Assembly (NCBI GenBank): GCA_017407205.1
Contig: JAFQXA010000034.1
Span: forward strand, 35,584-99,583
Length of the DNA stretch: 64,000 nt
Direction: 5' to 3'
From: Clostridia bacterium
Lineage (GTDB): Bacteria; Bacillota; Clostridia; Christensenellales; CAG-138
Part shown: positions 1 to 63,561 of the stretch, one piece after another
Layout: every line of letters begins with the position of its first letter
Position numbering within the stretch: position 1 is the stretch's first letter
Notes under the pieces: generated by a model
The model's database searches: none
What the model was told of the DNA's origin: nothing
The model's input: the letters and a program-made list of their open reading frames with translations, nothing else
Translations under genes and position numbers: made by a program

Positions 1-1094
1 AAAAGATTATGGAATGGTGAAAAGCGGTTTGAGAGCATTTCACCGGCGGTGATTCCTGCGGATATAATCTTAAAGTTTGAAAGTGAAGACATCAGTGGCA
101 TTGTTTTATTTTTCAATATGATCCTTCCGTCACGAAGCGAGAATGCTTCAAGATCGGGCTTTGTCTCAAATGCATCATCCATAAACTTTAAAAAATCTTT
201 TTCCTTGCACCTTAGAAGCTCCATATTCTGTTGTTTTTTTATTCTACCGCCCGACACGCGAATAAGCCTTGCAACAAAATGCCCCTCGCCTTTTGAATTA
301 TGCGGATAGAGTCTATGCATGAACTCAAGTTCAAACTCTGTAAAGCTATCCAAAAACCACGCAATTACCTGCTCATTCTCTTCTTCTGAAAACGTACAGG
401 TCGAGTATATGAGAGCACCGCCCAAGCTTACTGCTTCCTGTGCACTTGTCAGAATTTCACGCTGTCTGTTTGCACATGATATTACATGCTCCTTGGACCA
501 CTCCTGTACCGCTTTTTCATCGCGACGGAACATTCCCTCACCGGAGCAAGGTGCATCAATAAGCACCACATCAAAATATCCAGATAGTGCCCTGCACAGC
601 TTATCGGGGTGCGCTGATAAAACAACTGAGTTTGTAATACCAAGTCTTTCAAGATTCCCTGCAAGAATTTTTGCCCTGCTCGGAACAATTTCATTTGATA
701 CCAAAAGCCCCTCACCGCAAAGTCGTACTGCTACTCCTCCGCTTTTTCCGCCGGGTGCTGCACAAAGATCAAGAACTTTCATTCCGGGTACTATTCTTGC
801 AGCCTCAATCGGGCTCATGGCAGATGGCTCCTGCATATAATAAAGCCCCGCCAAGTGATACGGATCGTCTTTTACCTTTACATCACTTTTTAAAATAAAG
901 CCTTCTTCTAAAATTCCCGACTCTTCAAGAGAAAAATCCGACAGTTTTAAAAAATCCTCAACCGATATTTTTAAAGTATTAACACGCAAACCTCTTTTTG
1001 AAGGCTCATCATAGGAACGCAAAAAAGCGGTGAATTCATCACCTAACTGTTTCTTCATTCTTTCTATGAAGTTTTGAGGAAGTTTGCAAGTCAT
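1..1094 (-). CDS. rRNA m5C methyltransferase, NOL1/NOP2/Sun family (RsmF/RsmB-like); C-terminus runs off the window start
   Basis: Absent from the ORF track because it is open at the window edge. My reverse-strand translation from ATG (comp. 1092-1094) reads MTCKLPQNFIERMKKQLGDEFTAFL... It contains DLCAAPGGKS (SAM pocket), IDAPCSGEG and YSTCT (catalytic Cys motifs). The + strand ORFs 319-840 and 671-898 are its shadows. Confidence 0.85.
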   Translation of the reverse strand, partial: MTCKLPQNFIERMKKQLGDEFTAFLRSYDEPSKRGLRVNTLKISVEDFLKLSDFSLEESGILEEGFILKSDVKVKDDPYHLAGLYYMQEPSAMSPIEAARIVPGMKVLDLCAAPGGKSGGVAVRLCGEGLLVSNEIVPSRAKILAGNLERLGITNSVVLSAHPDKLCRALSGYFDVVLIDAPCSGEGMFRRDEKAVQEWSKEHVISCANRQREILTSAQEAVSLGGALIYSTCTFSEEENEQVIAWFLDSFTEFELEFMHRLYPHNSKGEGHFVARLIRVSGGRIKKQQNMELLRCKEKDFLKFMDDAFETKPDLEAFSLRDGRIILKNKTMPLMSSLSNFKIISAGITAGEMLSNRFSPFHNL

Positions 1095-1143
1095 GTGAAT
1101 ATATTATAGCAATACGGATTTCTTATCAAGCTTTTAATTGAAT

Positions 1144-1170
1144 ATCGGGGTGCAAAATATGCACCCCGAT
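1144..1170 (-). terminator. GC-rich hairpin downstream of the 99-aa ORF
   Basis: ATCGGGGTGCA-aaata-TGCACCCCGAT, a perfect 11-bp stem 25 nt after the stop at 1195. The following tract is T-poor, so it is not a textbook intrinsic terminator. Confidence 0.45.
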
Positions 1171-1194
1171 GCAGTTACTGCTTGCAAATCAATC

Positions 1195-1494
1195 TCAAGC
1201 ACTTCTGCTTTCATCCAATGTGCAGAAAAAAAGCTGGTTTGAATTAGATTCACGTTTTACAGTCTTAGGTCTGATACTTCTTGTATACTCATCAGTCAAG
1301 CAAGGTGAAACAGCTTTGCTGTATCTGTTTATGCTCGCCGCTTTTCGAGGCATGACCGCTACTTTTTCGCCGTAATAGCGTGTTTCCCTATGCTCGGACT
1401 CTTTCTTGTAGCTTTCCTCTACTGCTGCTGAGATTAACATTCCGATCAAAATGCCGGGAAGCAAAAAACTAAAAATAATACCTATAATGTTCAT
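1195..1494 (-). CDS. small membrane protein (99 aa): N-terminal TM helix, charged/basic tail; function unknown
   Basis: N-terminus is MNIIGIIFSFLLPGILIGMLISAAV, followed by a polar tail. AAGGAGGA RBS at comp. 1497-1505. Driven by a consensus promoter with an operator in its spacer (see 1593-1622). Confidence 0.6.
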   Translation of the reverse strand: MNIIGIIFSFLLPGILIGMLISAAVEESYKKESEHRETRYYGEKVAVMPRKAASINRYSKAVSPCLTDEYTRSIRPKTVKRESNSNQLFFCTLDESRSA

Positions 1495-1515
1495 TTGTTT
1501 TCCTCCTTAATTCTT

Positions 1516-1532
1516 GTATCTTGCTAAGATAC
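1516..1532. promoter_or_regulatory. operator-like perfect palindrome, copy 1
   Basis: GTATCTTgctAAGATAC (core GTATCT-N5-AGATAC). Lies between the predicted TSS and the RBS of the 99-aa ORF. Confidence 0.55.
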
Positions 1533-1551
1533 TTTGTTTTTTTAAAATTAT

Positions 1552-1569
1552 CCCGAGGTTCCCCTCGGG
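1552..1569 (-). other. GC hairpin in the predicted 5' UTR of the 99-aa ORF
   Basis: CCCGAGG-ttcc-CCTCGGG, a 7-bp perfect stem. Sits between the divergent promoters. Role unknown. Confidence 0.35.
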
Positions 1570-1592
1570 GTTTCCTGTCCTGCTATGTTTGT

Positions 1593-1622
1593 ATTATAGT
1601 ATCTCATCAAGATACTTGTCAA
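1593..1622 (-). promoter_or_regulatory. consensus sigma-A promoter for the 99-aa ORF
   Basis: The reverse strand reads TTGACA (comp. 1617-1622), an 18-nt spacer, then TATAAT (comp. 1593-1598). Confidence 0.7.
1598..1616. promoter_or_regulatory. operator-like perfect palindrome, copy 2, filling the promoter spacer
   Basis: AGTATCT-catca-AGATACT. Occupies essentially the whole -35/-10 spacer of the promoter at 1593-1622. Confidence 0.6.
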
Positions 1623-1664
1623 CAGTTTTTTTACAAAAAATTGAGATTTTCGAGAAACATCCTC

Positions 1665-1693
1665 TTGAATTATGTTTCCTCATAAGATACAAT
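1665..1693 (+). promoter_or_regulatory. promoter of the LexA-like gene with an imperfect third operator copy
   Basis: TTGAAT (1665-1670), a 17-nt spacer, then TACAAT (1688-1693). GTTTCC-tcata-AGATAC (1674-1690) overlaps the spacer and -10. Confidence 0.5.
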
Positions 1694-1749
1694 ATAAACA
1701 TCGAAAACAGAAACCAACTCATTTCAAGATAAAAACAGAGGTGAATTAT

Positions 1750-2379
1750 ATGAACAGAGTTAAAGAGCTTCGTATGCTTCACGGATTTACCCAAGACGAG
1801 CTTGGCGAAAGGCTTGGAATACAAAAAGCTGCTGTCAGCAAGTACGAAACGGGCCGTGTTCCGCTTCCGCCCGATACTTTAATGAAGCTTTGCGATATTT
1901 TTTCAGTATCGGCGGACTATCTTCTCGGTCGTGATAAGGTAACTCCGTTGTTTAAAAAGAGCCATTCCCTATCAAGCTCCTTCTCCCCGATTACGGAAAC
2001 TGTCGGTGTTCCTCTTGTCGGCAAAGTACACGCAGGACTACCCATGCTCGCAGAAGAAAACATAACCGAATACATTCCTACCCCGGCAGACGATGTTGCA
2101 GTTGACGAGTATTTTTACATGGAGGTTGAAGGTGACTGCATGACGGGTGACTTCATCCCTGAAGGTGCACTTGTATTGGTCAGAATGCAGCCCATGGTTG
2201 AAAACTCGCAAATCGCAGTTGTGCGTCTTGATAACGAAGTTCTGCTTCGTCGTGTTAAACGCCTTGACAAGCACCTTGTTTTGATACCGTCCAATCCAAA
2301 ATATGAGCCTATGATTGTGTCTGGCAATGATGCAAAAATAGTTGGTCGTGTCGTAGAGGTAAGAATACGCGGTCTGTAA
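1750..2379 (+). CDS. LexA-like autocleavable repressor: XRE-type HTH plus S24 peptidase domain
   Basis: The ORF track starts at 1672. I prefer ATG 1750 (MNRVKELRMLHGFTQDELGERLGIQKAAVSKYETG is an XRE HTH). C-terminal half has VGKVHAGLP (Ala-Gly cleavage site), EGDCMTG (LexA GDSM position) and LRRVKR (catalytic Lys region). Confidence 0.85.
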   Translation: MNRVKELRMLHGFTQDELGERLGIQKAAVSKYETGRVPLPPDTLMKLCDIFSVSADYLLGRDKVTPLFKKSHSLSSSFSPITETVGVPLVGKVHAGLPMLAEENITEYIPTPADDVAVDEYFYMEVEGDCMTGDFIPEGALVLVRMQPMVENSQIAVVRLDNEVLLRRVKRLDKHLVLIPSNPKYEPMIVSGNDAKIVGRVVEVRIRGL

Positions 2380-2396
2380 ATCAATGCTGAAACAAT

Positions 2397-2440
2397 AAAG
2401 AACGAAGGCACTGTTTGAAGCGTCTTCGTTCTTTTTATTT
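2397..2440. terminator. bidirectional intrinsic terminator between convergent genes
   Basis: AAAGAACGAAG ...16 nt... CTTCGTTCTTT, followed by TTATTT. Confidence 0.7.
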
Positions 2441-2452
2441 GCAAAAGAGTTC

Positions 2453-2650
2453 TTATTTTGACTTGTAGTACAAAAGGCAATGGCAAAAGCCTTCAAAGTC
2501 GGGATCTTTAATCTGGTCACGGAATTCCTTGCACATACACTTATTATCCTCGGTTCTCTCAAGCCTGCACGGGCAATATCCGCCCGTTTTTTCAAGACCT
2601 TCTTTTATTGCATTTACGATTTCAGCATCCGCATTAAATGTTACTTTCAT
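2453..2650 (-). CDS. ferredoxin-thioredoxin reductase catalytic-subunit-like small Cys protein
   Basis: 65 aa with the CPC...CMC...CHC spacing (GGYCPCRL, KCMCKEF, GFCHCLLY) typical of the FTR beta family. Confidence 0.6.
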   Translation of the reverse strand: MKVTFNADAEIVNAIKEGLEKTGGYCPCRLERTEDNKCMCKEFRDQIKDPDFEGFCHCLLYYKSK

Positions 2651-2706
2651 ATTTTACTCCTTGTTCTTTTAAAATCAAAAGTCTGCTGTAAAAGCAGGCT
2701 TTTATA

Positions 2707-3558
2707 CTATTTTTCAATGAACAGTACACCCAATGTGTTAGGACCGCAATGGCTGGAAATTACACAACCTGCACGAGTAACAAGAATTTCATTAAATACA
2801 TTCAAGCTTTCAAGGTATGTTTTTACCTCGCTTATAGTGTTTTCATCACAGCCCGAGTGCGTTATGAACACACGGTCGCCTTTTGCATTTTTAATTGCAT
2901 CTTCCATATCTGCTGCATACTGCATTATAACCTTTGATATGTTGCCGCGATACTTCTTTCCCGGCAACATTTTTCCGTCAACAACCGCGATTTTGGGATG
3001 AAGCTTCAATGCACTGCCTGCAAGTGCCGCAATGCCGCTGCATCTGCCACCGCGATAAAGATATGTCAAAGTATCGACAACAAAGCTTGAACGTACCTTG
3101 GTTTTGAGAGTATTCATCGCTTCTGCTATATCACGAGCACTCTTTCCTTCTCTTGCCATTATAGCTGCTTCGATCACCTGCAAACCAATACCAGTTGACA
3201 GGTTTTCGGAATCGACTACAAAAATTCTGTCCTTTGCATTGAGTTCTTCAACGACAAGACGCATTACATTTGCAGTAGTTGACATATGCCCCGATATCGA
3301 AAAACACACAACATCATCGCCTGCATCCAAATACTCTTTAAACGCATCCGCTGCAGCATCAAAAGAAAGTGCCGAAGTTTTGGGAGTAGCCTTATTCTTA
3401 TCCGACCAGACATATATATCATCGGGAGTTATCGTCAAGCCGTCTTCATACTCATCCTCACCCAAAACTATATGCAAGGGCAAAATGCATATGCCATACT
3501 TTTCGACAAGTTCAGGCGATAAATCGCAAGTACTGTCAGAAATGATTTTTACACTCAT
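2707..3558 (-). CDS. DegV family fatty-acid-binding protein
   Basis: 283 aa. N-terminus KIISDSTCDLSPELVEKYGICILPLHI is characteristic of DegV. Confidence 0.85.
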   Translation of the reverse strand: MSVKIISDSTCDLSPELVEKYGICILPLHIVLGEDEYEDGLTITPDDIYVWSDKNKATPKTSALSFDAAADAFKEYLDAGDDVVCFSISGHMSTTANVMRLVVEELNAKDRIFVVDSENLSTGIGLQVIEAAIMAREGKSARDIAEAMNTLKTKVRSSFVVDTLTYLYRGGRCSGIAALAGSALKLHPKIAVVDGKMLPGKKYRGNISKVIMQYAADMEDAIKNAKGDRVFITHSGCDENTISEVKTYLESLNVFNEILVTRAGCVISSHCGPNTLGVLFIEK

Positions 3559-3665
3559 TAAATTGTCCCTTTCTGTGCAATCTCATGCATTGAATAAATA
3601 AACAATAATAAAATGTTGCACGAGTACACTTCAACGTATAAATTCATACACATTATAGCATATAA

Positions 3666-43238: not shown

Positions 43239-46091
43239 CTACTTTTGCTGTAAAATTTTCTTAAGGCAAGCACCTGTATAACTGTTTTTATTTTGTGCAA
43301 CCTCCTCAGGAGTACCGCAAGCTACTACCGTTCCGCCCTTGTCACCGCCATCAGGGCCCATGTCTATTATATAGTCAGCCGTTTTTATAACATCAAGATT
43401 ATGCTCAATGGTTATAACCGTACTGCCTGAGTTTACAAGACGTTTGAGTATCTCAAGCAATCTTTCGACATCCGCCGAATGAAGTCCAGTTGTGGGCTCA
43501 TCAAGTATATAAACAGTTCTTCCCGTATCCCTGCGTGAAAGCTCCGTCGCAAGCTTTACGCGCTGTGCTTCACCGCCTGATAGCGTTGTTGACGGCTGTC
43601 CAAGCTTTATGTAGCCCAAGCCGACATCATAGAGCGTCTGAAGCTTTGATTTAAGGCGTGGAAGAGGTGCAAAGAACTCCAATGCTTCCTCAACTGTCAT
43701 ATCAAGAACATCCGCTATCGTCTTTCCCTTATATTTTACCTCAAGCGTTTCTCTGTTGTATCGCTTGCCTGCACAAACATCGCACGGTACATATACATCG
43801 GGCAAGAAATGCATTTCAATCTTGATTATACCGTCACCACGGCAAGCCTCGCACCGTCCGCCCTTTACATTAAAGCTGAATCTTCCGCCCGTGTAGCCTC
43901 GCATTTTTGCATCTGGAGTCATTGCAAACACTTCGCGCACCAAATCAAAAAGTCCTGTATATGTTGCGGGATTGCTCCTTGGTGTTCTGCCTATGGGTGA
44001 TTGGTCAATATCGATTACCTTGTCAAGATGCGAAATGCCCTCAATATAATCGCACTTTCCACCCGTAGTATGCGCTCTGTTTAAATCATGTAAAAGTCTT
44101 TTCTTCAAAACTTCGTTTATAAGACTTGATTTTCCGCTTCCCGATACACCTGTTACACAAGTAAATACACCAAGCGGAATTTCAACATCTATGTTTTTAA
44201 GGTTATTAGCCTTTGCACCGTGAATTATAAGCTTTTTATCGCTTATCGGTCGTCTTTCCCCGGGCACTTCAATCTTTCTTCTTCCTGACAGGAACTGACC
44301 CGTGATTGACTCTTTACATTTTGATACTTCCTCCACCGTACCCTCTGCAACGATATATCCGCCATGTTCGCCTGCACCGGGACCTATATCAACAATTCTG
44401 TCAGCAGCAAGCATTGTTTCCTCATCGTGCTCGACAACAATGAGTGTGTTTCCCAAATCACGCAATGTTTGAAGCGTTTTTATAAGTTTTTCGTTATCTT
44501 TCTGGTGCAGGCCGATACTCGGCTCATCAAGCACGTACAAAACGCCTACAAGCCCTGATCCGATCTGCGTAGCCAATCTTATTCTCTGTGCTTCACCGCC
44601 CGAGAGTGACGATGCACTTCGGGAGAGAGTCAGGTAATCAAGCCCTACATTCATAAGGAATCCAAGCCTTGAGCGTATTTCCTTGAGTATGAGCATGGAA
44701 ATTTTCTGCTCTTTTTCAGTCAGCACCAGCGAATCGATAAACTCTTGAATTTTACCGATGTTCTTATCGCTTACTTCAGCTATCGACAAGCCCCCTACCT
44801 TAACCGCAAGGCTCTCTTTTTTAAGTCTTTTCCCTTTACATTCGGGGCAAGCTACATGGGACATGTAACGCTCAAGCTCCTGCTTGATGCTTTCAGACTG
44901 CGTATCACGGTACCGTCTTTGAAGATTGTTGACAACGCCTTCAAAAGAAGCCGTAAATGTTCCGCTTCCGTACTCTTTCTCATATGTAACCTTTATCTTT
45001 GTACTGCCCGTACCGTACAAAATCGCGTTTTGTGCCTCCTTGCTTATCTCGCACCAAGGCGTATCCATTGAAAAGCCATAATGCTTTGCAAGTGCTTTGA
45101 AATACATCACGGCAACACCGCCCTCGTTTATGCTCTGCCAGCCGCTCGCCTTGATTGCCCCCTGATTTAACGACAAAGATTTATCGGGAACAATTATATC
45201 GGAGTCAATTGTCAAAAGCTGTCCAAGACCTGCGCAATGCTCACACGCACCGTAAGGATTATTGAAAGAGAACGTTCTCGGTGTAAGTTCGGGCAGACTT
45301 ATATCGCAATCTATGCATGAATAATTCTGTGAATAGAGCTTCTCGCCCTCGCCCACAACATCAATTTTACAAAGCCCGTGGCCGTATGTAAATGCCGTTT
45401 CAAGTGATGACGACAAACGGCTGTCAATATCGTTTTTTATTATGATTCTGTCAACAATAATGTCTATAGTGTGTTTTTTCTGCTTGTCAAGTGCCGGTAC
45501 CTCATTTATATCGTATAAAATGCCGTCAACCTCAACACGCACAAAGCCATCCTTGCGTATTTTTTCAAACAGCTTTTCGAACTCACCCTTGCGCGCTCTT
45601 ACAGCAGGGGCTATTATACGAATTTTCTTTCCCTCGCCCAAAGCTTTCACGCTGTCTACAACCTGGTCAACACTCATCTGCTCTATCGGTTTTCCGCATT
45701 TGGGGCAATGAGGCTTTCCGATATTTGCATACAGAAGCCTGAAATAATCATTTATTTCCGTGATTGTGCCAACAGTTGACCTCGGATTATTGCTTGTGCT
45801 TTTCTGGTCTATTGCAATAGCAGGCGAAAGTCCGCTTATGCTGTCAACATCGGGCTTGTCCGCCTGTCCCAAAAACTGCCTTGCATAAGCAGAAAGCGAC
45901 TCCACATACCTTCGCTGTCCCTCTGCATAGATGGTATCAAAAGCAAGCGAGCTTTTTCCAGAACCCGATAAGCCCGTGAAAACAACAAGCTTATTTCTCG
46001 GTATTGTTATACTTATATTTTTAAGATTATTCGCTCTTGCTCCGCGAATAACTATATTTTCATTCAAATCTCTACTGTCTTTTTTACTCAT
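43239..46091 (-). CDS. uvrA: excinuclease ABC subunit A
   Basis: 950 aa. Two ABC modules ([18 protein letters not shown]) and zinc-finger Cys clusters. Confidence 0.98.
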
Positions 46092-46099
46092 TTATTCAC

Positions 46100-48118
46100 T
46101 CATTTCCTTGTTCTGCTTCTTGCACGCTTTTTGCTTCCTACCGTACCGGGTGCAACCTTGCTTACGCTCTCGTTTTTGCCTTGCAAAGCAAAAAGCTCAT
46201 CACGAAGCTTTGCAGCAGTTTCAAAGTCAAGTTCTGCAGCAGCTTTTTTCATCTGCTCCTTAAGTATTTCTTCCTTCTTTGCCCTGTCACTGTCTGAGAG
46301 CTTATTATCATTCTTAGGCTTACCGGAAATAACTTCGAGCGTGCTTACAGATTTTACTATACTTTGCGGTGTTATTCCATGCTCTTCGTTATACCTTTTC
46401 TGTATTGTGCGGCGTCTTTGAGTTTCATCAATTGCTCGCTGCATGGAATCGGTTATTGTGTCAGCATACATTAAAACCCTGCCGTCTGCATTTCTTGCCG
46501 CTCTGCCTATCGTCTGCACAAGCGAAGTTGTGCTTCGCAAAAAGCCTTCTTTATCAGCATCAAGTATCGCAACAAGCCCGACTTCAGGAATATCCAAGCC
46601 TTCTCTTAAAAGGTTTATGCCGATAAGCACATCAAATTCTCCCATTCGAAGTGCACGTATTATTTCCATTCTCTCGATGGTCTCTATCTCAGAATGCATA
46701 TAACGCACTCTCACTCCCATCGAATCAAAATGCTCGCAAAGCATTTCCGCCATACGTTTCGTAAGCGTTGTAACAAGCGTTCTGTATCCCTTCTGTGCCA
46801 TCAAGCGCACTTCGCCGAGCAAATCATCAACCTGACCTGAAACAGGACGCACCTCAATACTCGGATCGACAAGTCCCGTAGGTCTTATAATCTGCTCTGC
46901 AACAACGCCTGCAAGCTCAAGCTCATACTGAGCAGGAGTTGCGCTTGTGCATATCACCTGATTCAAACGCTCATTAAATTCATCGAATTTCAAAGGTCTG
47001 TTATCGTATGCCGACGGCAAACGGAAACCGAACTCTACAAGATTTTTCTTTCGTGACAAATCACCGTGATACATAGCCCTTACCTGCGGAAGAGTAACAT
47101 GGGACTCGTCTATCAAAAGCAGGAAGTCATCCGGGAAATAATCAAGCAGAGTAAACGGAGGCTCGCCCTCTTTTCTTCCGTCAAAATAACGGGAATAGTT
47201 TTCGATACCTTGGCAGTACCCTATCTCTCGCATCATTTCAATATCATACTGCGTACGCTGCAAAAGACGTTCTGCTTCCAAAGGTTTTTCCTCTGCCTTG
47301 AATTCATCAACGCGCTCAACCAAATCACGTTCAATCATCCCTATTGCTTTTTCAAGCTTTTCCTTGCTCGTAGCATAATGTGATGCAGGGAATATCGCAA
47401 TGTGCGATAAATCAAGCACAACAGCACCGTTAGCTACATTTATCTCGGATATTCTGTCTATTTCGTCACCGAAAAATTCTACCCTTATTGCCCGCTCTTT
47501 CATATTAGACGGGAAAATCTCAAGCACGTCGCCTCGCACACGGAAAGTACCTCTTGCAAAATCGTAATCATTGCGTTGGTACTGTATATCAACAAGCTTA
47601 CGCATAAGCTCGTCCCTATCAAGCGTCATGCCTTTACGCAAAGAAATTGAAAGCTTTAAATACTCCTCAGGATCACCAAGCGCATAAATGCACGAAACCG
47701 ATGCGACAATTATAACATCCCTTCGCTCATTCAAAGCACAGGTTGCACTGTGTCTCATTCTGTCGATTTCATCGTTTACGGTTGCTTCTTTCTCGATATA
47801 TGTATCCGATGAAGCAATATAGGCTTCGGGCTGGTAATAATCATAATAACTGACAAAGAATTCCACCGCATTGTTTGGGAAAAATTCGCGAAATTCCGAG
47901 CATAACTGGGCAGCCAGGGTTTTATTATGTGCCAAAACAAGCGTAGGCTTACCTAAACGCTCAATAATATTTGCCATGGTGAAAGTCTTGCCGCTGCCCG
48001 TAACACCGAGCAATACGTCAAGCTTATCCCCTCTCTTTATTCCATTGACAAGCGTATCTATGGCCTGCGGTTGATCCCCTGTTGCCGAAAACGGAGATAC
48101 CAATTCAAACTTTCCCAA
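46100..48118 (-). CDS. uvrB: excinuclease ABC subunit B
   Basis: 672 aa. [13 protein letters not shown]-terminal UVR domain ([14 protein letters not shown]). TTG start behind AAAGGAG. Confidence 0.98.
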
Positions 48119-48141
48119 GCAATTCTCCTTTTGGTTTACAA

Positions 48142-48163
48142 AAGGGTGCCTTTTGACACCCTT
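48142..48163 (-). terminator. hairpin between the Dabb gene and uvrB (weak terminator or attenuator)
   Basis: Reverse strand: AAGGGTG-tcaaaagg-CACCCTT, followed by TTGTAAACC. Only ~10 nt before the uvrB RBS. Confidence 0.4.
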
Positions 48164-48168
48164 AAAAC

Positions 48169-48450
48169 TTATATCTCGTAATCTACTGAAATACCGCTTT
48201 CAAGTACTGTATGAATATAATCTTTAACCTTTACGTGTTCGGGGTGGTCAGCATATACATCAAGTCCTGCACGGTCATCAAATGTTGCGATAAGCACAAG
48301 ATGATAAGCTCGTGCCGTATCCATAAAGTCAATACCGACTTCCATATTCTTAAGTCCCGGTACTTTTCCGACAAGGTCCATAAGCATGGGCTTGATCTTT
48401 AAAGCTTCATTTTTATCATTATACTTGTGACATACTACGTGTTTAATCAT
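48169..48450 (-). CDS. Dabb (stress-responsive A/B barrel) family protein
   Basis: 93 aa. MIKHVV..., [23 protein letters not shown]. Confidence 0.8.
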
Positions 48451-48456
48451 TTTTCC

Positions 48457-49224
48457 TCACCTGTTCATTTCATATATTTTTTCAAGCCCCTTTAATGTAA
48501 GTGTGGGGTCCACTATATCTATGCAATCAGTTTCCGATGTTATCATGGACGAAAAACCGCCCGTTGCGACAACCTTATATTCTTCCTGCATTTCCTGCTC
48601 AATCTTGCGGATTATGTAATCCACTTGGCCGACATAGCCGTTTATAACACCTGCCTGAACAGCATCCTTCGTGTTTGAGCATACTATCTTATCAGGCTTT
48701 ACATACTCGACTTTATGAAGCATAGCCGCCTTATCCGTCAAAGCATCGGCAGAAACCATGATTCCAGGACAGATAACACCGCCCAAGAACTCGCCTTCGC
48801 GACTTATAACCGAAAAGTTTGTGGCTGTGCCAAAGTCAACTACTATACACGGACCGCCGTATATAGTATAAGCTGCTACAGCGTTGCATATTCTGTCAGT
48901 ACCGAGTGCGGACGGATAATCATACTTTATTTTTAGTCCTAAATTCATATCGCAATTTAAAAGCTTAACTTCTGCATTTTTAAAATACAGCCTGCACATA
49001 TGCTCCATAGTATAATTTATAGAGGGAATAACCGATGAAATCATAACGCCTTCTATATCAAGGGTTGATAAACCCAAATGCGTTAAAAAAGCTTCCATCT
49101 TGATTCCGTATTCATCCGCGGTCTGCTTTAAGTTTGTGGCAAATCGCCAAGAATTTCTAAGTTTTCCGTTTTCAAAAAGTCCCGTCTTTATATTGGTATT
49201 ACCAACATCAAGTACCAAATGCAT
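48457..49224 (-). CDS. coaX: type III pantothenate kinase
   Basis: 255 aa. LVLDVGNTNIKTG, VVDFGTATN, TGG. Confidence 0.93.
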   Translation of the reverse strand: MHLVLDVGNTNIKTGLFENGKLRNSWRFATNLKQTADEYGIKMEAFLTHLGLSTLDIEGVMISSVIPSINYTMEHMCRLYFKNAEVKLLNCDMNLGLKIKYDYPSALGTDRICNAVAAYTIYGGPCIVVDFGTATNFSVISREGEFLGGVICPGIMVSADALTDKAAMLHKVEYVKPDKIVCSNTKDAVQAGVINGYVGQVDYIIRKIEQEMQEEYKVVATGGFSSMITSETDCIDIVDPTLTLKGLEKIYEMNR

Positions 49225-55240: not shown

Positions 55241-55965
55241 ACCGCACTCTCCTTGATAAGGGAAATAAAAGCCGTTTCAAAATCATCACTCTTGCCCTTT
55301 TCTTTTAATTCCGCTGCCGTACCCACCGCAAGCAGATGTCCGCTTTTCATAATGCCGATACGATCGGAAAGTGACTCTGCTTCTTCCATATAATGTGTTG
55401 TCAGGATAATAGTCACTTTACCTTTTAATGAGCGAATCACACTCCAAAGCTCTTGCCTCGCAATCACATCCAATCCAAGAGTGGGTTCGTCCAGGAACAA
55501 AATCTGAGGTTCGCCAATCAGTGCCATTGCAATGCTAAGGCGACGCTGAAAACCACCTGATAACTTTCCTGCTTTTCTATTTAAAACTGCATCCAAGCCA
55601 AATCGCAGAGAAAGTTCGTTTGTTTTTAATTGCGTCTTTTCCTTGGAAAGCTCATGAATACCGCATATAAGTTCAAGATTTTCTTTCACGGAGAGATTCG
55701 GAGCAACAGCCGTTTCTTGTGGGGATACGCCTATTATCCGCTTTACCTTATCATGTTCTTCCGCAATACTGTAACCGCCCACAACAGCATCTCCGCTTGT
55801 AGGCTTTGTCAAACAAGAAAGCATTTTTATTATTGTGGTCTTCCCTGCACCGTTCACACCAAGCAAAGCGAATAATTCACCTTGCCGTATTTCAAAATTA
55901 AGTTCATAAACAGCCGTCAGGTTTTTATATTGCTTAACAAGCTTATGTGTTTTAACAGCTTGCAT
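55237..55965 (-). CDS. ABC transporter ATP-binding protein
   Basis: 242 aa. GVNGAGKTT, LSGGFQRRL, LFLDEPT. Confidence 0.92.
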   Translation of the reverse strand: MQAVKTHKLVKQYKNLTAVYELNFEIRQGELFALLGVNGAGKTTIIKMLSCLTKPTSGDAVVGGYSIAEEHDKVKRIIGVSPQETAVAPNLSVKENLELICGIHELSKEKTQLKTNELSLRFGLDAVLNRKAGKLSGGFQRRLSIAMALIGEPQILFLDEPTLGLDVIARQELWSVIRSLKGKVTIILTTHYMEEAESLSDRIGIMKSGHLLAVGTAAELKEKGKSDDFETAFISLIKESAV

Positions 55966-61146: not shown

Positions 61147-63561
61147 TTATTGTTTTTTAAGTATGTCTTCTACCCTTTTTCTGTATATTTCGGAGAGTTC
61201 TTCAGAATACTCCTCTTTAAAGCTTCCTGCCACCACTCTGCACGCATTAAAGCTTGAATTTGGCTTAACAAGTACCCAGCCATTATCGCACCGTACCCTT
61301 ACACCGTCTATAAGCTCCACTTTATCATCCTGCTCCATTTCAACCAGACTTCTCAGAACTCTGCCTATTTCATAAAACGAGCATTCCTTTTCCTTCTCGC
61401 TTGTATACACCTTGGGCAGAGAATTCAAATAAAGCTCCAGTTTTTTTTGCAAAACTAGCGAAACCGTTTTCAAAATCCTTGCTTCTGCTTCAAACATTTC
61501 AGGATAATAGCTTTGCTTTTTTAAATTTTTTCTCATAAGCACGCTCTTTTCGTTTGGCACTTTTTCAATTATTGCACCGTTCTCACAAAGCAAGCTCACA
61601 TATTCGTCGCTCATTTCTGCCGAAACGACAATTTCTTTTTTGTTCTCTTCCCTCATCCTATCGAGCAAGAACACGGCATCAAGGTCTTTTGCGCTTACAA
61701 GCCTTTCGCCAAAATACACCTCTTTGATGTCATTATCATGATTCACATAAAAGCCCAGTTTTGCACCGCTCGTTATAATGCTTTTTAAAAGCTGTTCTTT
61801 ATTCTCTAAAGGCAACATCCTTGCTCTTATACCGCTGTTTAAAAGCATCCTTGCGACCGCATCATAAACTTCTGTTTTACCACAAATAACGATATCAAAT
61901 TTATATTCGTCCTTTAACTTGGAAATAGGAATTTGCCTTAAAAGTTCCGCCTCATAGGCTCGGTTTGACACAAATTCCCTTTCTGCAATCCCCAGCCTTT
62001 TCGAAGTAACAGGTTTCTTCACTCCTTTTTTTATTTCCCGTTCCAGCTTTCGCAAATCGTTCGCACCAAGCAAAGCTCCGAACTCATCGTGCACCATTAT
62101 TTTCACAAGCTGTGCTTCGTCACCCGTTTTTATATATACACCGCCCGACAATGAAAGGTCTCTGATTGTAAATTCAAACTGTGAAAGCGTTGTGTATCCC
62201 GCATCAAGCACATCTCTGCCCTGCGAAACAATGCCTGATATCAAAGCGTGTTTCAGCATTGCTCCCGCTTGTGTTCCGTCGGTTGCGACCAACATAGCAT
62301 TTTCGCCTTTTAAAACGCTTGCTACCGATTGACCTATCACCACACACTTTTCCGGTGATAACTCTTCATCAGCATATCCTTTTCGGAAATTCTCACCACG
62401 AGCATTTATTTCCTTCTGCCATACGATGTTTTCAAAATACTTCGCACTTTCAAGGAGCTTTCTTGGCCACACAAGAACTGATGAGTCAATCATAACATCC
62501 TTTGCTGTTTGAGTTTTTGCACCAATAACAGCATATTCAAAAACTGAATTCCTGTTGCCGATTTTAACGCCCTCACAAAGAATTGCACCACGGATTTCGC
62601 AGTTTTCTCTGAGATGAACATCCTTCATGAGCACAGAATGCTTAACGCTGCTGTTTCTGCCGATTTTAACATTCCGTCCGATAACAGTTTCAGGACCTAT
62701 TATTACATTTTCCGCAATCTCTGTTCCGCTTCCTATATAGCAAGGTGGTACAAGCACTGCTTCATGAGAAATCCGTGTGCCGTCCTCAATATACACGCCA
62801 TCTCTTACAGGAGATATCAAGTCTGCTCTGCACTTTTTATTCATCAAATCAACTTGTGCGTTCATATACTCACGAATATCACCTATGTCGCACCAATATT
62901 TTGATGTTTCATAACCGTATATCGGCATTTTCCTTTCAAGCATTAAAGGAAATAAATCCTTGCTGAAGTCAACCACCGTATTTTCTTTTATGAGCTCTGT
63001 CGCCTCTTTTTCAAGAATATATATTCCTGTATTCACAAGATCTGAAAAAACCTCGTTCGGCATCGGCTTTTCCAAAAATCTTGTTATAAATCCGTTCTTG
63101 TCGCAAAGCACTACCCCGTACTCGGTCGGATCTTCTACCTTTTTCAGGACAATCGTAGCCGCCGCACCGTTCTTTTTATGCTCTGATATCGCCTCACTTA
63201 AATCAACATCACAGATCGCGTCACCGCTTATTACTAAAACCGACTCATCAATATTATTTCCCAAAGCATAACGAACACTTCCCGCTGTTCCCATTGGCTT
63301 ATCCTCAACAGAGTATTGCATAGATACGCCAAAATACCCACCGTCTCCAAAGTACTCCTTTATGTTGTTTGGAATGTAGTGCAATGTAGCCGTTATATCG
63401 GTAATGCCGTGTTTTTTCAAGAGTTCCACGCAATACTGCATTGTGGGTTTGTTTAAAAGTTCCGCCATAGGCTTTGGTTGTGTGCAGGTAATAGGACGCA
63501 ATCTCTGTCCCTCTCCACCTGCCATTATTACTGCTCGCAAAAAAATAATACCGCCTTTCAT
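61147..63561 (-). CDS. fusion protein: sugar-1-phosphate nucleotidyltransferase + LbH + phosphohexomutase-like domains
   Basis: 804 aa. AVIMAGGEGQRLRPIT (NTP-transferase G-loop), hexapeptide-repeat middle, C-terminal PGM/PMM-like fold (LVATDGTQAGAML...DAGYTTLSQFEF). The start codon is uncertain. Confidence 0.8.
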   Translation of the reverse strand: MKGGIIFLRAVIMAGGEGQRLRPITCTQPKPMAELLNKPTMQYCVELLKKHGITDITATLHYIPNNIKEYFGDGGYFGVSMQYSVEDKPMGTAGSVRYALGNNIDESVLVISGDAICDVDLSEAISEHKKNGAAATIVLKKVEDPTEYGVVLCDKNGFITRFLEKPMPNEVFSDLVNTGIYILEKEATELIKENTVVDFSKDLFPLMLERKMPIYGYETSKYWCDIGDIREYMNAQVDLMNKKCRADLISPVRDGVYIEDGTRISHEAVLVPPCYIGSGTEIAENVIIGPETVIGRNVKIGRNSSVKHSVLMKDVHLRENCEIRGAILCEGVKIGNRNSVFEYAVIGAKTQTAKDVMIDSSVLVWPRKLLESAKYFENIVWQKEINARGENFRKGYADEELSPEKCVVIGQSVASVLKGENAMLVATDGTQAGAMLKHALISGIVSQGRDVLDAGYTTLSQFEFTIRDLSLSGGVYIKTGDEAQLVKIMVHDEFGALLGANDLRKLEREIKKGVKKPVTSKRLGIAEREFVSNRAYEAELLRQIPISKLKDEYKFDIVICGKTEVYDAVARMLLNSGIRARMLPLENKEQLLKSIITSGAKLGFYVNHDNDIKEVYFGERLVSAKDLDAVFLLDRMREENKKEIVVSAEMSDEYVSLLCENGAIIEKVPNEKSVLMRKNLKKQSYYPEMFEAEARILKTVSLVLQKKLELYLNSLPKVYTSEKEKECSFYEIGRVLRSLVEMEQDDKVELIDGVRVRCDNGWVLVKPNSSFNACRVVAGSFKEEYSEELSEIYRKRVEDILKKQ

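Follow-up and report, generated by a model that had tools for sequence, protein, structure and literature searches.

In Francisella, the chromosomal FddR is a co-opted CI-type S24 repressor with a palindrome in its own promoter and a divergent unit, and its binding and induction have been shown experimentally (PMC13148647). HdiR of Lactococcus and Streptococcus, also from the Firmicutes, joins a phage-type XRE helix-turn-helix (HTH) to an S24 domain, is autoregulated and controls a minimal regulon, not the complete SOS response, and the non-canonical LexA of Bacteroidetes combines CI-like N-terminal and S24 C-terminal domains with N5-spaced palindromes, GGA-N5-TCC and CTAA-N5-TTAG (PMC8565304). 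The lexA-yneA pair of B. subtilis and the lexA-sosA pair of S. aureus each place a small protein with a single transmembrane (TM) segment divergently from a damage-responsive S24 repressor, with operators in the shared intergenic region; YneA and SosA are removed by proteolysis through the C-terminus, by the extracellular protease CtpA (PMC6851548, PMC13396833). Here we describe a locus with likenesses to each of these systems, in a 64,000-nucleotide stretch of a Clostridia contig (JAFQXA010000034.1, positions 35,584 to 99,583; hereafter the window). It comprises a gene for a 209-residue repressor and, divergent from it, an open reading frame (ORF) for a 99-residue membrane protein (the small ORF), with copies of the palindrome GTATCT-N5-AGATAC between them.

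This is very likely a genuine stress switch that is complete in itself and of a type already familiar, though its lineage is unstudied, and about 80 related uncultured gut Clostridia show the same layout. We regard the finding as real: an uncharacterised, predicted phage-type S24 repressor in a divergent and self-contained unit, the regulatory reading of which is well supported in silico.

The control region and its palindromes

The 255-bp divergent intergenic region holds all three copies of the palindrome, two perfect (O1 and O2) and one with two mismatches (O3), whose coordinates are collected in Table 1. O2 (GTATCT-CATCA-AGATAC) fills the spacer of the small-ORF promoter, and the right half of O3 is fused with the -10 element of the repressor's own promoter (GATACAAT), with three bases in common. 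O1 is in the small-ORF leader, at about +54 to +70 from the predicted transcription start site (TSS), 6 nt upstream of the Shine-Dalgarno (SD) sequence and at a spacing of 83 bp (about 8 turns of the helix) from O2. Re-reading window positions 1-3600 bore out every coordinate and sequence that the initial annotation had given for the palindromes and both promoters. Its statement that the motif is not the Cheo box, of which it had found none, also held: CGAAC-N4-GTTCG gave 15 window hits at up to two mismatches where 18 were expected; all of them had two mismatches, and the control region contained none.

Perfect copies of GTATCT-N5-AGATAC occur twice in the window against 0.00 expected. With up to two mismatches there are nine hits against 1.67 expected, of which only O1, O2 and O3 are intergenic, the other six being inside ORFs. 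Two further operator-like sequences, 55712-55728 (15.6 bits) and 62374-62390 (13.8 bits), also lie inside long ORFs and are probably chance, because shuffles of the window average about four matrix hits of at least 8 bits.

We scanned 185,579 species genomes and recovered 80 orthologous loci (counts out of 81 include the window), all from uncultured Clostridia, mostly Christensenellales-like metagenome-assembled genomes, with many labelled Christensenellaceae, Christensenellales, Candidatus Pelethousia or CAG:138. Allowing at most one mismatch, GTATC-N7-GATAC was found 126 times in the 19.5 kb formed by the 250 bp upstream of the repressor genes, in 77 of the 80 loci, as opposed to 15 times in the other 561 kb; the upstream regions are thus enriched about 240-fold. 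The operator constitutes the whole spacer of a near-consensus TTGACA/TATAAT promoter (at least 11/12), directed away from the repressor gene, in 74 of 81 loci; this spacer-operator is 17 bp long in 72 loci and 18 bp in the window and locus L009. Positions 1-6 and 12-17 of the O2 alignment are nearly invariant, (G/A)TATC(T/C)…(A/G)GA(T/A)AC, and positions 7-11 are free. Judged from these columns, invariant arms around a free centre are the signature of a putative dimeric HTH site, not of promoter constraint. The 19.2-bit matrix derived from the sites finds 7.6 sites/kb in intergenic regions versus 0.014/kb elsewhere, with at least three sites in 48 of 80 loci, and every strong hit outside intergenic regions is the same control region displaced. 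This phylogenetic footprinting strongly supports the earlier proposal of putative dimer-type operators on each of the two divergent promoters, that of an autoregulated S24 repressor and that of its small membrane-protein target.

The idea that the palindromes are a functionless product of chance or of local duplication retains a negligible probability, and the comparative data refute it. Although the region is AT-rich and weak flanking similarity links the three copies (27-nt direct repeats at 67-70% identity), 100 dinucleotide shuffles of the window yielded not a single perfect copy, and loci with repressors of only 52-90% identity have the motif enriched 240- to 500-fold at the same places in the promoters. 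On the comparative evidence, we consider it highly probable that the sites are operators, with (G/A)TATC(T/C)-N5-(A/G)GA(T/A)AC as the predicted binding sequence of a dimer of the 209-residue CI-type repressor.

The coupling of O3 to the repressor's promoter recurs among the relatives. GATACAAT is present in 62 of 69 orthologous O3 sites, and a -35 TTG stands 17-18 nt upstream in all 74 of 74. In its left half O3 steadily reads (G/A)TTTC; position 3 is T in 65 of 74 loci, where O2 has A in 67 of 74. A weak operator on the repressor's own promoter, as suggested initially, is plausible given this conserved departure from the palindrome; against it, GTTTCC is also an ordinary O2 half-site in distant clades, and O3 scores 19.5 bits with the family matrix compared with 20.4 for O1 and 20.7 for O2.

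A leader site of the O1 type (at least 11 bits) was found in 59 of 76 orthologous loci. The O1-O2 spacings in these relatives fall into groups of 71-74, 83-89 and 145-147 bp (about 7, 8 and 14 turns of the helix), which hints at binding on the same face of the helix, in loci that are not independent samples. The predicted leader folds O1 into a 7-bp hairpin 10 nt upstream of the SD sequence, beside a GC-rich hairpin, so that O1 could instead be an RNA element acting on translation or stability. We judge this very unlikely: the arms of O1 are identical to those of O2, yet O2 precedes the TSS and so cannot work at the RNA level; the leader site of the relatives keeps the operator arms and not just base-pairing; and no Rfam family matched, the only hit being a sub-threshold one to MicX (E = 0.16). 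The GC-rich hairpin itself sits between O2 and O1 within the leader of about 90 nt. It resembles a terminator or attenuator and may damp basal expression of the small ORF; its conservation among the relatives is not obvious.

The exact composite TTGACA-GTATCY-N5-RGATAC-TATAAT was found in 46 metagenome contigs, nearly all with a small ORF downstream. The repressor gene is 86-124 bp away in 42 of the 46, and three contigs end too soon to tell. One contig, L097, has the small ORF and its promoter without an adjacent repressor, an orphan arrangement which indicates that the operator travels with the small gene. Its positions 187-434 (minus strand) hold the TTGACA-operator-TATAAT promoter and a 62-residue family member (MNYMGLVFSYMIPG…, ending LSD), with an 872-residue, repeat-rich, surface-type protein in the repressor's place. 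A second palindrome, ATACC-N6-GGTAC, abuts the -35 element of the small-ORF promoter in 34 of 76 related loci (in L010, for example, about 115-98 bp upstream of the repressor start) and is absent from the corresponding part of the window (1623-1645). Its half-site and spacing are unlike those of the operator, and it may serve another factor or be an auxiliary site.

Table 1. Positions of the features described in the text, numbered from the first letter of the window
Feature	Position	Strand	Sequence or structure	Remark
O1	1516-1532		GTATCTTGCTAAGATAC	Perfect; GTATCTT-GCT-AAGATAC, extends to 7+3+7
O2	1599-1615		GTATCTCATCAAGATAC	Perfect; AGTATCT-CATCA-AGATACT when extended (1598-1616)
O3	1674-1690		GTTTCCTCATAAGATAC; GTTTCC-TCATA-AGATAC	Two mismatches
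Small-ORF promoter	1593-1622	minus	TTGACA (1622-1617), 18 nt, TATAAT (1598-1593)	Promoter scan 12/12, the only 12/12 of the region
Repressor-gene promoter	1665-1693	plus	TTGAAT (1665-1670), 17 nt, TACAAT (1688-1693)	Promoter scan 9/12
GC-rich hairpin	1552-1569	minus	CCCGAGG-GGAA-CCTCGGG, then AUAAUUUUAA	z = -4.6
Intrinsic-terminator-like hairpin	2397-2443	plus	Hairpin and U-run	After the repressor gene; -21.4 kcal/mol, z = -4.1
99-residue small membrane protein	1195-1494	minus		Strong ribosome-binding site (RBS) AAGGAGGA at 1509-1502
209-residue repressor	1750-2379	plus	N-terminal HTH_3 (XRE), C-terminal Peptidase_S24	
Ala95-Gly96	2032-2037			Predicted cleavage site
GDCM motif	2131-2142			
Cys130	2137-2139			
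Lys170	2257-2259			
65-residue Cys-rich ORF	2453-2650	minus		
uvrB-uvrA	43239-48118	minus

The repressor and its nucleophile position

The repressor consists of HTH_3 (residues 4-58) and Peptidase_S24 (residues 88-202), the latter matching PF00717 over profile positions 1-116 of 116 (E = 2.9e-26). The phage CI-type repressor family phrog_4 matches it over the full length (E = 6.5e-40), whereas TIGR00498, the LexA equivalog, covers residues 83-204 only, with a score of 93.3 against a cut-off of 110.95. The closest solved structures are LexA C-terminal domains and lambda CI (PDB 3bdn over residues 12-203). In an exhaustive search the family reduces to one 50%-identity representative, followed by a steep drop to XRE-S24 proteins that are about 40% identical.

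The initial annotation called this protein a LexA-like repressor. The likeness stands for the C-terminal half, which resembles LexA and has the canonical S24 features of an Ala-Gly cleavage site and a catalytic Lys. It does not extend to the rest: the winged-helix DNA-binding domain, the Ser nucleophile and the Cheo-box operator of canonical LexA are all absent, the DNA-binding domain being HTH_3 and the Ser being replaced by Cys. We rule out LexA and assign the protein to the CI/HdiR/FddR type of HTH_3 plus Peptidase_S24. Its features are those of that type, with an XRE HTH fused to S24, a putative operator palindrome in its own promoter and a chromosomal, non-prophage site with a divergent target. 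A literature search on LexA of this clade found nothing relevant.

Ala95-Gly96, Lys170 and the Cys at the nucleophile position are invariant in an alignment of 19 diverse homologues (60-86% identity), and Cys130, in the GDCM motif, aligns with the catalytic Ser of the GDSM motif in M. tuberculosis LexA (6a2q). Cys occupies the catalytic-Ser position in 118 of 120 repressor homologues; among the 149 next-closest XRE-S24 cluster representatives, 112 have Ser and nine have Cys. HdiR-type regulators are described as serine peptidases. A Cys nucleophile is plausible, since E. coli LexA S119C was reported by Slilaty and Little in 1987 to retain self-cleavage.

These residues bear on whether the repressor responds to DNA damage at all. 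The substitution might have made it a plain XRE repressor that does not cleave itself, or one that answers a redox or thiol-type cue, and is deaf to RecA in either case. The invariance of the Cys fits this alternative, as does an operator linked to no DNA-repair gene, and RecA-independent LexA-like proteins such as IrvR offer a precedent, an S24 regulator independent of RecA having been described (PMC7101444). We nonetheless think it unlikely, given that the family keeps Ala-Gly, Lys170 and the S24 core as a whole without variation, which would be unexpected if cleavage had been lost, that Cys appears sporadically in other XRE-S24 proteins (the nine of 149 above), and that the E. coli LexA S119C variant is reported to be cleavable. 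We place DNA damage, sensed through RecA filaments and self-cleavage, somewhat on the likely side as the inducing signal, by homology to other S24 proteins.

Extent of the unit and the small membrane protein

A search of about 0.9 Mb of clade sequence, made up of the window outside ORFs, ±4-8 kb around more than 80 orthologues and 319 kb of metagenome contigs, turned up no additional operator; the few hits outside control regions fall within genes or, in L015 and L020, represent the same region displaced. With no other site in this flanking sequence, the unit looks self-contained, as does the FddR unit of Francisella (PMC13148647). A genome-wide regulon, as had been suggested, may accordingly not exist, and the uvrBA genes of the window are likewise without a site. 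This uvrB-uvrA pair directly follows another short ORF and a terminator-like hairpin (48119-48470), which leaves it an upstream region of only about 60 nt, and it carries neither the palindromic operator nor a Cheo box, so that nothing here points to excision repair under SOS-type control. When six-frame translations of the 64-kb window were scanned for motifs, neither canonical LexA nor recA was found.

The flanking genes are housekeeping genes that vary by genome: rsmF, degV, ligA and pcrA in the window, and hflX, rpoBC, RNase J and others elsewhere. We rejected a larger conserved unit including rsmF, degV and ligA, because that synteny is kept only in the two closest relatives; the conserved unit is the two-gene pair. 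An origin as a prophage was also rejected, there being no phage genes nearby, no phage repressor above 37% identity and no match to the composite promoter in 2.9 million viral contigs. The terminator-like hairpin after the repressor gene implies that the repressor is monocistronic. The same terminator region is common to a convergent 65-residue Cys-rich ORF with a weak match to PF02943 (ferredoxin-thioredoxin reductase catalytic chain; E = 3.9e-5).

A member of the small-protein family is encoded divergently from the repressor in 74 of 80 loci, and the pairing is reciprocal, in that a search seeded with three distant homologues of the small protein reveals, beside each, a divergent HTH_3+S24 gene. 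The family is unannotated and single-pass (MNYFGLFFSFMIPG…), with a conserved N-terminal helix (MNYFGLFFSFMIPGIIIG) and a length of 39-92 residues (median 64). The window protein has an N-terminal TM helix (MNIIGIIFSFLLPGILIGML), a charged tail and a C-terminal LFFCTL motif, and ends RSA; together with its two closest relatives it represents a longer variant. Two LY/LF motifs are present in this variant among the closest relatives of the window copy. Searches of Pfam, NCBIfam and PHROG gave no family match, and database homologues are unnamed or listed as 'hypothetical protein'.

The ssrA/ClpX degron has a C-terminal Ala-Ala as its core. The same two residues end 64 of 74 family members, and a (K/R)LY(V/I) motif is found in 65 of 75. 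The tail is net basic in 73 of 75 members (median K+R 11 versus D+E 4), which by the positive-inside rule, a heuristic, predicts a cytoplasmic C-terminus. The Ala-Ala end and the LY(V/I) motif in this basic tail suggest a cytoplasmic tail with an ssrA-like degron of the ClpXP type, unlike a CtpA substrate. The overall layout, a small protein (39-99 residues here) with one N-terminal hydrophobic helix and a gene divergent from that of an S24 repressor, is shared with the SOS-induced division inhibitors YneA, SosA, ChiZ and DivS. By this analogy the protein might arrest a membrane-associated process, most readily cell division, an assignment that we offer tentatively and do not hold to be the probable one.

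The same operator logic could instead serve a membrane-damaging toxin or persistence factor of the TisB, DinQ or holin type, or be what remains of a prophage immunity or lysis module. Such an effector would suit a tiny protein with a very hydrophobic N-terminus and no homology to known division inhibitors, under tight repression by three operators and a leader hairpin, and the repressor has its phage affinities, namely the full-length phrog_4 match and up to 37% identity to Firmicutes phage repressors. The housekeeping, genome-variable neighbourhoods are free of phage genes, however, the viral contigs lack the composite promoter, and the conserved LYV motif and the Ala-Ala tail point to a specific partner protein and to regulated turnover rather than to simple pore formation. 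We regard this explanation as rather unlikely.

A proposed switch and its described counterparts

We propose that the repressor and the small protein probably form a self-contained, damage-inducible and autoregulated two-gene switch that releases a short-lived membrane effector. A dimer bound at O2 would touch both hexamers and exclude RNA polymerase from the small-ORF promoter, and one bound at O3 would occlude the -10 of the repressor's weaker promoter, giving negative autoregulation. O1, in the leader beside the RBS, would probably tighten repression through a roadblock or an O1-O2 loop. On damage, RecA filaments would stimulate self-cleavage at Ala95-Gly96 by the Cys130/Lys170 dyad, parting the HTH from the dimerisation domain and opening both promoters. 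The small membrane protein, made in a burst, would act as a transient checkpoint effector in the manner of YneA and SosA, and its Ala-Ala-ended cytoplasmic tail would allow rapid removal of the ClpXP type once repression returns.

Several observations weigh against this switch. The orthologous loci are phylogenetically related, so the counts overstate the number of independent observations. The classical SOS genes of the window (uvrBA, pcrA and ligA) carry no operator, which leaves the S24 domain as the only link to DNA damage. The catalytic Ser is a Cys, the competence of which in this scaffold is only predicted. As for the small protein, the window copy ends Ser-Ala and not Ala-Ala, homology to YneA, SosA or LysM is absent, and the basic tail predicts a cytoplasmic C-terminus, the opposite of YneA and SosA (PMC6851548).

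A bolder version would make the pair the damage checkpoint of this order of gut Clostridia, in which a phage-type S24 repressor with a Cys nucleophile controls a single effector and possibly replaces canonical LexA, the effector is a new cytoplasmic-side inhibitor of division or growth with an ssrA-like Ala-Ala degron, and induction is sensitive to thiol oxidation. We think it improbable as a whole; if true, the Cys nucleophile would link oxygen exposure to the switch in strict anaerobes.

For the proposed two-gene switch, the comparison with described systems shows differences beside the likenesses set out above. FddR is from Gammaproteobacteria, recognises GTG-N11-CAC and retains the key S24 catalytic residues (PMC13148647). 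HdiR has another operator and acts on umuC-type mutagenesis cassettes (in S. thermophilus also on recA), not on a small membrane protein, and the Bacteroidetes LexA governs a broad SOS regulon (recA, umuDC, dinB and others), compared with no second target in about 0.9 Mb here (PMC8565304). The lexA-yneA and lexA-sosA pairs depend on a canonical LexA with a winged HTH and a Cheo box, and their effectors have extracellular C-terminal domains (LysM in YneA), whereas the small protein here has a tail predicted to be cytoplasmic, a family end of Ala-Ala and no sequence homology to either. Lambda CI shares the HTH and S24 domains, several 17-bp dyad operators over divergent promoters, negative autoregulation and possible cooperativity; by contrast, the module here is not in a prophage, has no Cro-like antagonist and has sites 75-83 bp apart rather than adjacent.

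For an uncharacterised regulator that is conserved throughout a large group of gut and rumen Clostridia, most of them uncultured, the analysis defines a precise candidate operator, the layout of the promoters and a candidate target. Wider leads are the Cys that nature has fixed where S24 proteins have their catalytic Ser, and the unannotated small membrane family with its conserved, predicted cytoplasmic motif and Ala-Ala end, perhaps a checkpoint effector of a new type. As an example from the Firmicutes, the locus joins FddR, HdiR and the Bacteroidetes LexA among phage-type S24 repressors that appear to serve as divergent units for building SOS-like networks.

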